From assembly GCF_057098645.1 (NCBI RefSeq), contig NZ_CM169472.1: a DNA stretch of 64,000 nucleotides; one strand, given 5' to 3'. Both the position numbers and the translations under genes were made by a program. Numbering within the stretch: position 1 is the first letter of the stretch; each line of letters begins with the position of its first letter. The notes beneath the pieces were generated by a model. The model was not told the origin of the DNA, ran no database searches, and worked only from the letters and a program-made list of their open reading frames with translations. Shown piece after piece: positions 58,615-63,537 of the stretch.

Positions 58615-59694
58615 TTAATGTTGTCTGTCATACCAATACACCAGGCTCAACGCCACCAGCACAAACGCTATCGGTAAACCGAGCGCGGTAACAGGTGCGC
58701 TCAACGCAAATAGCAATCCCAGATTGACCATGATTTGATAGCTGATCCAGGTGAGTAAGCCAACGATGACACCTACAGCGAGACGGCTACCCATCCCTGG
58801 CGAGCGCGGGGCACTAAAGGTAAACGGCACAGCCAGCAAAATCATCGCCAGGGTCAGGATGGGTTGCCCCAGTTTTTCCCACAGTGCAAGGCGGTATTCG
58901 CTGCTGGGTTGCCCGGTTTCCTGCAAATAATGGATGTAATGATTAAGCTGACGGACAGAAAAAGTATTCCCCGGCATCGATAGCTCTTCAAGATCCATAC
59001 TGGTGAAGGCCGATTGCCAGGCAAGATTATCTAATGTTTCCAGCGTTTCTTTGCCATTCAGCCATTTTTTATGATTCACACCATGCAGGATCCACGTTTT
59101 GTCGTCTTCAATGGTGGCACTGCGTGCATAAATGTAGGATTCAAGCGAGAGATCGTCGCGATAATGAAATATCTCCACGCCCACCGGCTGGCCCTGCTCA
59201 TTCAGCGATTTCACCGTCACAAATTCATTGCCGCGCCTGGCCCACAGCATATTGCCGGTAATGTCATCGTCCTCCCCCAACGCGGTGGCGGTCGATTTGA
59301 TTTGCAGCGCCTGTTGCTGCAATGGCGACGCCACCCACTCATCTATCGCGCCTAACGAAACAGTCCACAATATCCCGGCAACCAGCGCCACCAGTGCAAT
59401 ACGGAAGATAGAAAACCCCGTGCTGCGAATGGCGGTAAGCTCACTGTTTTTCGATAACTGCCCCAGGCCGACAATCCCTCCTAATAATGCGATAAACGGC
59501 GAAAGCTCCACCAGTGTGCGCGGTAAGGTCATCAGCACCACCATCACCGCCTGGGTCCAGCGATAGCCGCCGGGGCTGACATCATCTAGTTCGTTAATCA
59601 GGTTGAAGGTGGTGAAAAGCGGAAGCAGTAATCCAGCCGCAGCCGTAAAGCCGAGAAACACGTGACGTATCAAATAGCGACTGAAAATATTCAT
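58615..59694 (-). CDS. LptG-like permease (YjgP/YjgQ family)
   Basis: About 359 aa from the internal start MNIFSRYLIRHVFLGF...; 4 bp overlap with the upstream paralog. Confidence 0.75.
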   Translation of the reverse strand: MNIFSRYLIRHVFLGFTAAAGLLLPLFTTFNLINELDDVSPGGYRWTQAVMVVLMTLPRTLVELSPFIALLGGIVGLGQLSKNSELTAIRSTGFSIFRIALVALVAGILWTVSLGAIDEWVASPLQQQALQIKSTATALGEDDDITGNMLWARRGNEFVTVKSLNEQGQPVGVEIFHYRDDLSLESYIYARSATIEDDKTWILHGVNHKKWLNGKETLETLDNLAWQSAFTSMDLEELSMPGNTFSVRQLNHYIHYLQETGQPSSEYRLALWEKLGQPILTLAMILLAVPFTFSAPRSPGMGSRLAVGVIVGLLTWISYQIMVNLGLLFALSAPVTALGLPIAFVLVALSLVYWYDRQH

Positions 59695-60761
59695 CGGAAG
59701 TATTTCTGCAACAAAGAGAAGTCGCGGGCAATGAGCAGCAGCAAGCCAATCAACATGACCCCTGGTATCAACCACAAACCTGGAATAAGAGGGATCGCGC
59801 CATTAGCCACCAGCGTACGGCAAACATCGCCGCCATAAAAAATGGCAATAAACAGCAACGTCAGTGGCAATAACGTTGAAAATCGTCCCTGCCGCGGTTT
59901 TACCCGACTTAATGAAATGGCCAGCAGCGCCATCAACAATGCGGTCAGGCCACGGCTTTGTCGCCATTGCAGTTCGGCATGATCGGCTGGAAAGACGGAG
60001 CGCGCCAGCTCCGTGACCGATTTCGCTTTGCGTTTGACGTTAGGGCTTTGATCCAGCGGATTCAGATGTAATTGCAGATTACGGTAGATCTGTTCGTTGT
60101 CGTCACGCCCCTGATGATCGAGAAGATAGGCAGTGCCGTTGTGCAACATAACGGTCGGTTTCTCGGGTGATGGGTCAACCACATCAACCGAACGGGCGCG
60201 GAAAATGCGGGTTCGATTGGCAGTAGAAGTATAAATCAGCGCGTCAGTCAGGCGATTATTATCCTGATCAACCGTCTGCGAAAGGATCATTCGTCCGTTA
60301 TCGTTAGTGTTAAATTTCTTTGCCCGCAACTGGCGAACATCCAGCTCCGACTGCGACTGCTGCTCCAGTTGATAAATCTGCGCATAAGCCCACGGACGAC
60401 CATACATCGACAGAAGGGTGACAAAAATACTTAGCGGTATCGCCAGATAAAGAACGGCTTTGTACAAGCGTCCCGGACTGCCCCCCGCCGCAGAGATAGC
60501 GGTAATTTCCGAGTCGGTATACATCTGCCCTAGCGTCACGCCAACTGACACATACAGACCAACAGGTAACAACATCTCCAGTGCAATCAGCACTTTGTAG
60601 AAAACGATATCCAGCACAACATCAAGAGCTAATGTCCCATTTGCCGCTTCGGTCAGATAACGCTGTGCGGAGTAGCTGGCGAAAATAAAGATCAGAAAAC
60701 CGACGATAATCAGCACCAGACGGCGCGTACCACGCATGATGTAGTGTTCAACCAGCTTCAT
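59691..60761 (-). CDS. LptF-like permease (YjgP/YjgQ family)
   Basis: 356 aa; TM helices flanking a large periplasmic loop. Confidence 0.75.
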   Translation of the reverse strand: MKLVEHYIMRGTRRLVLIIVGFLIFIFASYSAQRYLTEAANGTLALDVVLDIVFYKVLIALEMLLPVGLYVSVGVTLGQMYTDSEITAISAAGGSPGRLYKAVLYLAIPLSIFVTLLSMYGRPWAYAQIYQLEQQSQSELDVRQLRAKKFNTNDNGRMILSQTVDQDNNRLTDALIYTSTANRTRIFRARSVDVVDPSPEKPTVMLHNGTAYLLDHQGRDDNEQIYRNLQLHLNPLDQSPNVKRKAKSVTELARSVFPADHAELQWRQSRGLTALLMALLAISLSRVKPRQGRFSTLLPLTLLFIAIFYGGDVCRTLVANGAIPLIPGLWLIPGVMLIGLLLLIARDFSLLQKYFR

Positions 60762-60791
60762 CTCACTAACGCCCTCAATCCTTTGAGTTTT

Positions 60792-61355: not shown

Positions 61356-61363
61356 TGCTCCGG

Positions 61364-62188
61364 TTATAGCGGAAAACGCGAAATCAGCAGCTCTAAGCGC
61401 TGGCGAATATCGCTATCCAGCGCCACCGGTGCATCATACGACTGGCGGTTTTCCATATCATCCGCCACCATGTCGTCGTGTTTATCCCCCATCAGGCCAT
61501 TAATGGCGGCGAGGAAACGGGAAATCTGTAACGCCTCTTTATTTTCAGGATCAAGCGATCTTAAGGTGTCGTAATAAGAAACCTGCTGGCTGATGATTTT
61601 TCGCACATCATGAAATTCCCTGCCGGTTAGTCGCGGTTTGGCAATTATCTCTTTCAGGGCATGCATTTGCTTTTGCCGATAGGCAATAAAACCGCTTACG
61701 CTTTCTAACTGGCTATGGCGTAATGAATAGTTCACCAACGACCAGACCGGAGAGCTTAAATAAATTCGTAACAGGTTGCCGTAATACGACACAATATTTT
61801 TCTTACCGTTACGAAATCCGTCCTGAAAACGTCCCAGAAAAACGGTCGTTTTGCCGAATAAAAATCCGGCCTGATGCTTCTTTAAATACAGCCGTTGCGC
61901 AAAACGCAGGTGCTTGTAGCGCGCTCGCATGTATTTAAATTGTTTGCGCTCATCAGCAGTCAGCTCATCGCCTTTGGCTTGTTTGCGAACTAAACGCAGT
62001 AATTCCTGACGATTAACGCCATTGAGCCAGAATTGCAGGCATAACGCGTAATTATCATGAATGATTTCGGTGGTACAACTTAGTGCAATAGTCGACGGCA
62101 AACTAACCTGTGCATCAACGACATCATCTTCTTCAATCGCAACAAATAGACGCTCGCTCGCCTCAAGCGGGAAATATTTTCTCATCAT
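61364..62188 (-). CDS. Hypothetical protein (274 aa)
   Basis: ORF tightly packed between the flippase and the periplasmic protein genes; no motif recognised. Confidence 0.5.
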   Translation of the reverse strand: MMRKYFPLEASERLFVAIEEDDVVDAQVSLPSTIALSCTTEIIHDNYALCLQFWLNGVNRQELLRLVRKQAKGDELTADERKQFKYMRARYKHLRFAQRLYLKKHQAGFLFGKTTVFLGRFQDGFRNGKKNIVSYYGNLLRIYLSSPVWSLVNYSLRHSQLESVSGFIAYRQKQMHALKEIIAKPRLTGREFHDVRKIISQQVSYYDTLRSLDPENKEALQISRFLAAINGLMGDKHDDMVADDMENRQSYDAPVALDSDIRQRLELLISRFPL

Positions 62189-63537
62189 CAGGATTTCTCT
62201 CCGGCTGCGTTATAAAGCAAGGAATGGCGCTGAAAAAATGCCTTTAAGGTTGGAATTAACGAGAGCGCCACGTCCAGACATTGCCCACCGAAGTAAGCAA
62301 ACGCGGCTCCCAGCACGCCAAACAGATGACAGAACATGAACAGCAATACGATGTAGCCGATTGAGGCGATGGTTTGCGCCACGAGAAAAGCGCGCTGTTT
62401 TCCCGCCATCAATAGCAATGACTCCTGCGGGAAACCCAGCATCGAAATCACAATTGCGCCCAGCATCACCTGAATCAGGTCATACACTTCGAGATACTTA
62501 ACGCCAAACACCAGCGAAATGAGCGGCTTGCCGACGATCAACACCGCGAGCGCCACCAGAATACCGATTCCGCCCGCCAGTAAACCGGACTTCACACCTA
62601 ACAACCACGGTCTGGTGGTGCGCGGATCTAAACGCATCACCTCTGGGTAAAAACTTTTACCCAGCAAACCCGCTGGCGTTCCGGCGGCGTCGAAGAATGT
62701 CATGGCGATTTTAAATAACCCGGCGGCAGCGGGTCCTAACACGATCCCCACCAACACTGTGCTGCACGAGTTACGCGCCGACCAGATGGAGTGGGCAATG
62801 TTGGTTGACCAGACAAAACTCCACGCGCCTTTAATGTGTCGGGCAGACTCAAACAGATTCAATTTGAAGGCGTTATGGATATTTCTGCGGCGTAATTCGT
62901 GCGCGGCAAACCACCAGTACATGGTGCCGCCAACCAGATTCGACACGTACCAGGCAATAACAAAACCCGCAAAACCAAAGTCAAAATACCAGGCTGCGAC
63001 GCTCCCCGCTGCGCGCAGAAAAGGTTTCGTCGCCTGCTGTACAGCAATCAAATCAAAGCGATCTACCGCACGCAGAATGCCGGTCGGCGTGGAGGAAGCC
63101 ATTGAAGGAATGAGCGTGCAATACAGCGCCGCCAGCCAAAAGCTTTGGTCATCCAGACCTAATGAATGGGAAAGGAATGGCAGTAAGGCAATGCCGCCGA
63201 CAATCGCCACCGCGCCGCTGACGATATCCAGCGAGAAGGAAAATGAGACGACATTGCGAAATTGCTGCGGATTATTGTTGGTTAATGCTGGTGTTCCGTA
63301 CTGAACCACCAGCTGCCATGTCTGAAACTTAATAAAATCGCTGATCGACTTGGCGTACGATTGCACAATCACCAGTACGCCAAACATGGCGGGCGTCATC
63401 CCTTTACCGGCACACGAGAGCGCCAACAGACCCAGCAAAGCGCTCACGACATTACTGGAGCCTAACCAGGCGCTATTGCGAATAATGGTGCGAAACGCGC
63501 CATCTGCAAACCAATGTTTGATGTTAAAACCCGCCAA
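62188..63537 (-). CDS. yghQ: MOP-superfamily flippase (polysaccharide/lipid-linked exporter; yghQ-like)
   Basis: 449 aa, about 12-14 TM; the gene symbol is from synteny and memory, not verified. Confidence 0.6.
   Translation of the reverse strand: MAGFNIKHWFADGAFRTIIRNSAWLGSSNVVSALLGLLALSCAGKGMTPAMFGVLVIVQSYAKSISDFIKFQTWQLVVQYGTPALTNNNPQQFRNVVSFSFSLDIVSGAVAIVGGIALLPFLSHSLGLDDQSFWLAALYCTLIPSMASSTPTGILRAVDRFDLIAVQQATKPFLRAAGSVAAWYFDFGFAGFVIAWYVSNLVGGTMYWWFAAHELRRRNIHNAFKLNLFESARHIKGAWSFVWSTNIAHSIWSARNSCSTVLVGIVLGPAAAGLFKIAMTFFDAAGTPAGLLGKSFYPEVMRLDPRTTRPWLLGVKSGLLAGGIGILVALAVLIVGKPLISLVFGVKYLEVYDLIQVMLGAIVISMLGFPQESLLLMAGKQRAFLVAQTIASIGYIVLLFMFCHLFGVLGAAFAYFGGQCLDVALSLIPTLKAFFQRHSLLYNAAGEKS

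Follow-up and report, generated by a model that had tools for sequence, protein, structure and literature searches.

Candidate lipid export genes beside the sphingolipid cassette of Escherichia coli: a second LptF/LptG-type permease pair and its accessory set

A 64,000-nucleotide stretch of Escherichia coli DNA (RefSeq assembly GCF_057098645.1, contig NZ_CM169472.1), referred to here as the window, carries a block of five minus-strand genes at 58615–63537 that includes a second pair of permeases of the LptF and LptG families, LptF2 and LptG2. The pair is intact, is under purifying selection, is linked to the serine palmitoyltransferase gene spt, and falls in a clade apart from the canonical LptF and LptG of lipopolysaccharide (LPS) export. 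The block probably supplies the transport and accessory functions of the E. coli sphingolipid island, in which LptF2/G2 would move the lipid to the outer membrane with the ATPase LptB. Dependence on sphingolipid and binding to LptB have been demonstrated in Caulobacter only; for E. coli, we infer the mechanism, flipping by YghQ, and the route taken after the inner membrane. An earlier note on this DNA, made from the letters alone, had described an LptF/LptG-like pair, a secreted protein, a 274-amino-acid (aa) open reading frame (ORF), and a MOP flippase in this interval, and all five minus-strand ORFs are present where it placed them. Its proposal of a dedicated route to the outer membrane for the product of the neighboring lipid cassette is supported by the identification of that cassette as sphingolipid genes, by linkage of the pair to spt in 57/80 loci together with its separate clade, and by Caulobacter genetics. 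The idea is already in print, however, having been demonstrated in Caulobacter and implied for E. coli.

The second permease pair

Both proteins belong to the LptF/LptG permease family (PF03739). LptG2 scores 308.8 bits against TIGR04408 (cutoff, 240; model positions 1–350 of 351), and LptF2 scores 319.1 bits against TIGR04407 (cutoff, 230; positions 2–347 of 347). In a crude hydropathy scan, three N-terminal and three C-terminal hydrophobic segments, found solely at residues ~8–120 and ~275–353, flank a hydrophilic stretch of ~160 residues, as in LptF and LptG. The coupling-helix glutamate (equivalent to LptF E84 and LptG E88) occurs in 37/37 LptF-type and 37/37 LptG-type sequences, those of the window included. 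Translation of lptG2 begins at the ATG at 59694; an ATGA overlap joins this codon to the end of lptF2 and couples the two genes translationally. A 386-aa version of the lptG2 ORF, with a GTG start and reaching to 59775, is no more than the mechanical maximum. Pseudogenization of the pair, which the earlier note had named as a refuting outcome, was not found: the ORFs are intact, and the ratio of nonsynonymous to synonymous substitution rates (dN/dS), measured against other Escherichia lineages, is 0.04–0.05 for lptG2, 0.04–0.06 for lptF2, and 0.03–0.12 across all five genes, indicating strong purifying selection.

The pair is distinct from the housekeeping exporter. Identity to the K-12 proteins is 28% for LptG2 to LptG and 30% for LptF2 to LptF. 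Neighbor-joining trees, which are simple distance trees, were constructed using two canonical sequences per family and spt-linked proteins from Enterobacterales and Pseudomonadaceae. The spt-linked pairs split from the canonical E. coli and Pseudomonas aeruginosa LptF/G in 100/100 bootstraps. The Enterobacterales branch of the spt-linked proteins nests inside the Pseudomonas branch, which hints that the sphingolipid island may have moved between the two groups. At every Enterobacterales and Pseudomonadaceae locus, tblastn bit scores were 3–7 times higher to LptF2/G2 than to K-12 LptF/G. With this level of identity, a separate clade, and deletion from K-12, the pair lies outside canonical LptFG. 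Because such paralogs exceed the TIGR04408/04407 equivalog cutoffs, the RefSeq annotation pipeline PGAP names the pair LptG/LptF in thousands of genomes, and the window proteins (WP_001400738.1 and WP_000779638.1; 58615–60761) are entered as "LPS export ABC transporter permease LptG/LptF," where ABC denotes ATP-binding cassette. The LPS-export name is probably wrong about the substrate.

Residues that contact LPS were taken from the Shigella LptB2FG-LPS structure (PMC6744409). Basic residues that bind the lipid A phosphates are kept as Arg/Lys at LptG K62 and R136 and at LptF R33 and K317. At LptG K34, K40, K41, and R133 and at LptF K322, the residues found instead are N/D, D/E, D, L, and N, respectively, and contacts to the LPS inner core are not conserved. 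Canonical P. aeruginosa LptG likewise lacks K34, K40, K41, and R133, and the contact residues were dropped as proof of a changed substrate. The pattern fits an anionic lipid without a Kdo core, although it is not diagnostic.

Linkage to spt was surveyed in other genomes using one genome per species, the best 80 loci (56%–99% Spt identity), and flanks of ~10 kb. An LptF/G pair lies within 10 kb of spt in 57 of these loci, and all 13 genes of the island are found in 27. Enterobacterales-type loci contain the pair in 30 of 34 cases; the remaining four comprise a second spt copy and three loci whose flanks are truncated. LptG2 orthologs with 65%–75% identity occur in Hafnia, Serratia, Citrobacter, Pantoea, Erwinia, Sodalis, Shimwellia, Pluralibacter, and Klebsiella indica, and Serratia and Hafnia contigs carry the whole set beside the spt operon, in two different orientations. 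More distant metagenomic relatives (46% and 37% identity) lie in spt clusters with other head-group genes, which code for a CDP-alcohol phosphatidyltransferase, a diacylglycerol (DAG)-kinase-type kinase, and nucleotidyltransferases. Within the species, 4052 of 5426 complete E. coli genomes contain 80% or more of the 11-kb region.

The locus and its sphingolipid genes

The features of the locus are listed below by window position.

58615..59694, minus strand: lptG2, LptG-family permease of 359 aa (TIGR04408); the start agrees with the RefSeq coding sequence and the ATGA overlap
59691..60761, minus strand: lptF2, LptF-family permease of 356 aa (TIGR04407)
60792..61352, minus strand: ytfJ2, cysteine-free periplasmic protein of the YtfJ family, thioredoxin-like fold
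61364..62188, minus strand: 274-aa protein ("Ybl138"), cytoplasmic, all-alpha, CHAD-like fold
62188..63537, minus strand: yghQ, MOP/Wzx-type (Polysacc_synt) multi-pass membrane protein, candidate inner-membrane flippase
63583..64000, minus strand: 3' part of yghR, P-loop protein similar to thymidylate (dTMP) kinase; the window end cuts the gene
58583..58617, no strand: GC-rich hairpin (stem, 16 bp) separating the convergent genes spt and lptG2
54529..58580, plus strand: aasR-cerR-acpR-spt operon, sphingoid-base synthesis (RefSeq annotation)
52983..54125, minus strand: yghO, ceramide synthase/N-acyltransferase homolog; TGG->TGA (W116*) at 53778–53780

The five intact genes fill 58615–63537 with intergenic gaps of −4 to +30 bp. 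The next upstream gene in the minus-strand operon is yghR, followed beyond the window by yghS and then by the divergent yghT, and the minus-strand genes from yghS through lptG2 look like one seven-gene operon. A promoter scan found no excess of sigma-70-like sites over shuffled sequence (14 versus 14.4), and a sigma-70-like site in the yghS-yghT spacer is merely suggestive. The block converges with the lipid cassette, as the earlier note had it: spt stops at 58580 and the stop codon of lptG2 starts at 58615, leaving a 34-bp spacer. The hairpin in this spacer (dG, −29.9 kcal/mol; z = −6.3; 0/200 shuffles equally stable) resembles a bidirectional terminator.

RefSeq annotates the plus-strand genes as a fatty acyl-AMP ligase, an epimerase/dehydratase-family protein, an acyl carrier protein, and a serine palmitoyltransferase, with yghO on the other side. 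This cassette corresponds to the aasR, cerR/epi, acpR, spt, and aca genes reported for E. coli by Padilla-Gomez et al. 2022 (PMC9386255), and the "lipid product" of the earlier note would therefore be a sphingolipid precursor or ceramide. In E. coli BL21, AcpR carries phosphopantetheine, AasR acylates AcpR, and Spt prefers acyl-AcpR (PMC9386255). Formation of 3-oxo-sphinganine is the sole step demonstrated for the E. coli enzymes (PMC9386255).

In the window, yghO is interrupted at codon 116. The 81-mer around this nonsense codon is found exactly in 26 of the 4533 genomes that have the region, all O145 among the 12 matches listed, and RefSeq marks yghO as a pseudogene in the genomes nearest to this one. 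Ceramide formation is probably broken in this strain, leaving the system idle or handling an incomplete product, and the transport genes of the window isolate are therefore probably without a finished substrate. The reverse defect is seen in K-12 (E. coli MC1061, L003 5155–7349), where IS5 replaces aasR through the 5' part of yghQ and yghO is intact. The K-12 "yghQ" is therefore a truncated remnant, and its yghO and yghR/S/T are orphans. Since K-12 lost lptF2G2 by this IS5-associated deletion, the two genes are dispensable in the laboratory.

Gene order differs between genera. Four orders were found in Enterobacterales, with linkage kept in all of them. The sub-modules [lptF2-lptG2], [yghT / yghS-yghR], and [yghQ-CHAD-like-ytfJ2] shuffle around a core of [yghO / aasR-cerR-acpR-spt]. 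As yghQ, the CHAD-like gene, and ytfJ2 move as one sub-module, the secreted YtfJ2 is associated with the flippase gene rather than with the permeases. Homologs of yghO and cerR lie beside spt in nearly every locus examined. In Pseudomonas, Azotobacter, and Stutzerimonas, lptF2-lptG2 lies beside yghO, and yghQ, the CHAD-like gene, and ytfJ2 are absent. Pseudomonas mandelii (L046 11250–13031) has an MsbA/HepA-like fused ABC exporter directly after spt, the position of yghQ in Enterobacterales, which suggests that both groups require a flipping step. The P. mandelii locus (L046; 13071–14616, 1209–2207) also has two dTMP kinase-like P-loop genes and, beside lptG2, a weak DAG-kinase-type lipid kinase. 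Two acpR-spt loci per genome occur in Serratia sp. M24T3 (L017/L041) and Pseudomonas sp. UBA8181 (L042/L051); the second copy in Serratia sp. M24T3 (L041) consists of acpR-spt alone, with the rest of the island absent.

The window comes from an E. coli of O145:H28 type. Positions 53000–64000 are ~99.96% identical to strains RM12581 and RM12761, with four differing sites against each, three of them common to both comparisons. Three changes are specific to the window and all are non-synonymous (ytfJ2 Q66R, cerR E99K, and lptG2 V202I), the latter two at variable positions. Identity with strain RM12581 itself was rejected on the basis of other gene content upstream of ~43 kb and indels of 1–2 bp at 43–53 kb; in contrast to RM12581, window positions 39248–40015 encode an IS66 transposase and not FecE. 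Because of these departures, coordinates and locus claims were read from the window sequence itself. Elsewhere in the window, a high-GC segment (0.57–0.60) at 9798–16825 encodes the ferric-citrate system, FecE included. Mobile elements at 22175–24593 and 38798–40441 comprise an IS21-type IstB helper ATPase (23565–24590) and an IS66-family transposase (~38.8–40.4 kb). Matching records for 28001–41750 annotate an IS-flanked 3-hydroxybenzoate/gentisate cluster (mhbT, 3-hydroxybenzoate 6-monooxygenase, and gentisate 1,2-dioxygenase), just past which is a low-GC stretch (0.38) at 42–44 kb. Island content upstream of glcA is unlike that of the nearest complete genomes.

Accessory proteins and the ATPase

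YghQ matches PF01943 (Polysacc_synt; E = 1e-8) and PF13440 (E = 1e-7) and has at least seven hydrophobic segments in a crude scan. It scores 29.8 against the NCBIfam MOP model, whose cutoff is 273, placing it in MOP/Wzx at the superfamily level only. YtfJ2 scores 211.8 bits against TIGR01626 (cutoff, 151) and has a single N-terminal hydrophobic segment ending VQA/H, a signal peptide. It has zero cysteines and so cannot be a thiol-disulfide oxidoreductase; it is a redox-inactive periplasmic accessory protein. Its codon 66 (window position 61156) encodes Arg, where 28/29 enterobacterial orthologs and the two nearest O145:H28 genomes have Gln. A role for the secreted YtfJ2 as an analog of LptC2/LptA was rejected on fold, as it does not have the OstA-like beta-jellyroll.

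The 274-aa protein has no match in Pfam or NCBIfam, and the Pfam CHAD model gave none even at E = 10. Its identity to solved CHAD domains (e.g., Ricinus CHAD 6QV5 and Streptomyces PptA 6RN5) is just 10%–18%. The protein is rich in invariant Arg, Lys, and His and is described here as CHAD-like in fold, without a Pfam CHAD match. PDB sequence searches with YtfJ2, YghS, and YghQ returned nothing useful.

Genes yghR, yghS, and yghT code for proteins with a Walker A motif only and weak similarity to dTMP kinase, with no ABC_tran domain and no LSGGQ-type signature. YghR, whose gene is the partial ORF at the window end, matches P-loop/AAA-type fragments and, weakly, dTMP kinases; the earlier note was right that this ORF is not an ABC ATPase. 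Linkage of yghR to spt was found in Enterobacterales, some beta-proteobacteria, and Pseudomonas. The three proteins were rejected as homologs of the Caulobacter ceramide kinase CpgB, which is a DAG-kinase-type enzyme with a GGDG motif, whereas they are P-loop proteins.

The earlier note had also stated that the window holds no ABC ATPase. This is correct for the locus, where none is present, but not for the window as a whole: FecE, an ABC ATPase, is encoded at 16058–16825 (NF008409, 486.6 bits; cutoff, 375). FecE is part of a ferric-citrate importer, lies 42 kb from the locus, and has no connection with the Lpt genes. The note's suggestion to look beyond position 64000 was followed for 12 kb, which contain yghR, yghS, yghT, pitB, gss, yghU, and hyb and no ABC ATPase or LptB-like gene. 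A full-length lptB is present as a single copy in 5425/5426 complete E. coli genomes, unlinked to either lptFG pair. In K-12, canonical lptFG (4.486 Mb, beside pepA) and lptC-lptA-lptB (lptB at 3.344 Mb) are 1.1 Mb apart. The lack of an ATPase gene beside lptF2G2 is thus expected, because canonical lptFG is also unlinked to lptB.

Proposed role and relation to known systems

The following mechanism is proposed. Synthesis of the lipid by AasR/AcpR/Spt, CerR, and YghO would take place in the cytoplasm and inner leaflet, probably with modification by the CHAD-like protein and by YghR/S/T, the linked P-loop proteins. YghQ may then flip it to the periplasmic leaflet. LptF2-LptG2 would act as a heterodimeric type VI ABC permease powered by LptB, borrowed from the housekeeping system; it would take the lipid out of the inner membrane and hand it on, by way of its periplasmic domains, toward the outer membrane. 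Onward passage would probably be over the ordinary Lpt bridge. A more tentative proposal, plausible but short of probable, concerns the 13-gene Enterobacterales island as a whole: most E. coli other than K-12 may make an undescribed, probably phosphorylated (anionic) sphingolipid, with head-group chemistry unlike the ceramide diphosphoglycerate (CPG2) of Caulobacter, that is flipped by YghQ and delivered to the outer membrane by LptF2G2-LptB. The literature searched links neither yghQ/R/S/T nor the full accessory set (YghR/S/T, CHAD-like, YtfJ2, and YghQ) to sphingolipids.

Several points weigh against export of a sphingolipid by this pair. Caulobacter has an LptC2 where E. coli has none. In the window, yghO carries the W116* codon (TGG->TGA, 53778–53780), directly followed by TTG. 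The literature searched reports no E. coli sphingolipid. Orthology of the pair to the Caulobacter proteins CCNA_01213/01214 rests on a preprint figure and on the gamma- and beta-proteobacterial spt-linked clade. The replacements at LPS-binding positions are no proof of a changed substrate, because canonical P. aeruginosa LptG has the same. Some beta-proteobacterial spt loci have yghQ/R/S/T and no LptFG pair within 10 kb; the yghQ/R/S/T sub-module is therefore tied to sphingolipid synthesis independently of LptF2G2. Such loci include L067, L068, L070, and L085 (Gallionellaceae, Sulfuritalea, Rhodocyclaceae, and Methylotenera), which have yghQ-like and yghR/S(/T)-like genes beside spt, with a CHAD-like gene also in L070.

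The yghO lesion raises the alternative that in an O145-type strain the block is an idle relic, left with no finished substrate and at the start of decay. We regard this as rather unlikely. It agrees with W116* in the window, with the RefSeq pseudogenes in the nearest genomes, with the 26/4533 distribution of the 81-mer (all O145 among the 12 listed), and with the window-specific Q66R change in YtfJ2 at a position that is Gln in 28/29 orthologs; Caulobacter logic also predicts that loss of synthesis with transport kept is harmless. Yet the five transport and accessory genes and aasR-cerR-acpR-spt are all intact ORFs, a single nonsense codon is evolutionarily very recent, and the TTG right after the stop might still allow a C-terminal fragment of YghO to be made. 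The alternative is moreover about the strain and not about the purpose of the genes. It is improbable that LptF2/G2 export another product of the cassette, a free or modified long-chain amino-alcohol lipid, in place of a ceramide-based sphingolipid. The accessory genes (YghR/S/T, CHAD-like, and YtfJ2) are wholly unlike the CPG2 head-group genes of Caulobacter, and the E. coli enzymes have been shown to form 3-oxo-sphinganine only, as this would allow; the presence of yghO and cerR homologs with spt nearly everywhere examined is instead what dihydroceramide synthesis predicts, and the retained phosphate-binding basic residues fit an anionic lipid, without settling the matter.

That the pair is a back-up or specialized exporter of LPS or lipid A, as the RefSeq name implies, is very improbable. 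Scores above the TIGR04407/04408 equivalog cutoffs and the PGAP names lptF and lptG are set against 28%–30% identity to the cell's own LptF/G, the separate clade, linkage to spt and not to LPS genes, and the lack of conservation at the inner-core contacts. The pair is also missing from K-12, whose LPS export is normal, and in Caulobacter its essentiality depends on sphingolipid and not on LPS. Equally hard to credit is a supply of power from YghR/S/T instead of LptB. These proteins would be at hand, as yghR and yghS lie in the same operon and their linkage is conserved in Enterobacterales, but they have only Walker A and weak dTMP kinase similarity, with neither an ABC signature nor ABC_tran. 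In several genera their sub-module lies apart from lptF2-lptG2, and in beta-proteobacteria without a nearby LptFG it accompanies spt. The coupling-helix Glu that docks LptB is invariant, and LptB binding has been demonstrated in Caulobacter. Export of a sphingolipid by LptF2/G2 with LptB remains the preferred reading.

E. coli is the reference organism for outer-membrane biogenesis, and laboratory K-12 has lost the sphingolipid island. If most natural E. coli, together with Serratia, Citrobacter, Hafnia, Pantoea, and many Pseudomonas, carry a second Lpt inner-membrane complex for a sphingolipid, LptB would serve two lipid export systems, drugs directed at LptB2FG may have a second target, and the barrier function, the binding of polymyxin, and recognition by the host may be influenced by an unrecognized surface lipid. 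The practical weight for the window strain is smaller, since the pathway appears broken at yghO.

The sphingolipid genes of E. coli BL21 (yghO, ECD_02850; aasR, ECD_02851; cerR/epi, ECD_02852; acpR, ECD_02853; spt, ECD_02854) occupy the same chromosomal locus as those of the window. The BL21 study differs in that transport genes were outside its scope, and the window strain differs in the nonsense codon in yghO. With the YtfJ and TlpA/DsbE/ResA-type periplasmic thioredoxins, YtfJ2 shares a family hidden Markov model score above cutoff, a signal peptide, and a thioredoxin-like fold; unlike the housekeeping E. coli YtfJ (TIGR01626/PF09695), it is an additional copy that, in sphingolipid loci, moves together with yghQ and the CHAD-like gene. 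The 274-aa protein differs from CHAD domain proteins in its setting, occurring in sphingolipid loci and not in polyphosphate contexts. Canonical E. coli LptB2FGC (LptF, b4261; LptG, b4262) has in common with LptF2/G2 the family, length, layout of hydrophobic segments, gene-pair overlap, coupling-helix Glu, several phosphate-binding basic residues, and an unlinked ATPase gene. LptF2/G2 differ from canonical LptFG in their 28%–30% identity, separate clade, dispensability (absent from K-12), spt linkage, and loss of the inner-core contacts.

The closest known system is that of Caulobacter, where CC_1155, CC_1156, and CC_1168 (LptG2, LptF2, and LptC2) and the flippase-like CC_1166 have been proposed as phosphosphingolipid transporters (Olea-Ozuna et al. 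2024, PMC11324152). Similar loci were drawn for Azotobacter and Pseudomonas luteola (PMC11324152). Caulobacter lptF2, lptG2, and lptC2 can be deleted only in strains without spt or cpgB, so that loss of lptF2/lptG2 is tolerated only by cells that make no anionic sphingolipid; LptF2 and LptG2 associate in a complex, each co-purifies with the housekeeping LptB, and there is no second lptB (Uchendu, Isom, Klein, April 2026, bioRxiv 10.64898/2026.04.12.717747). Figure 2B of that preprint draws the locus of E. coli UTI89, and lptF2/G2 are reported in many alpha- and gamma-proteobacterial sphingolipid loci (bioRxiv 10.64898/2026.04.12.717747). The two sets of head-group genes are unrelated: that of Caulobacter includes CpgB (a ceramide kinase of the DAGK type) along with nucleotidyltransferases and a CDS-like protein, and that of E. 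coli comprises YghR/S/T, YtfJ2, and the CHAD-like protein. Caulobacter CC_1166, assigned to InterPro IPR002797 (Polysacc_synt family) in the supplement of PMC11324152, and E. coli YghQ are both Polysacc_synt candidate flippases near the pair. Like the pair in the window, Caulobacter LptF2/LptG2 (CCNA_01214/CCNA_01213, equal to CC_1156/CC_1155) form a second permease pair inside an spt/ceramide locus with no dedicated lptB.

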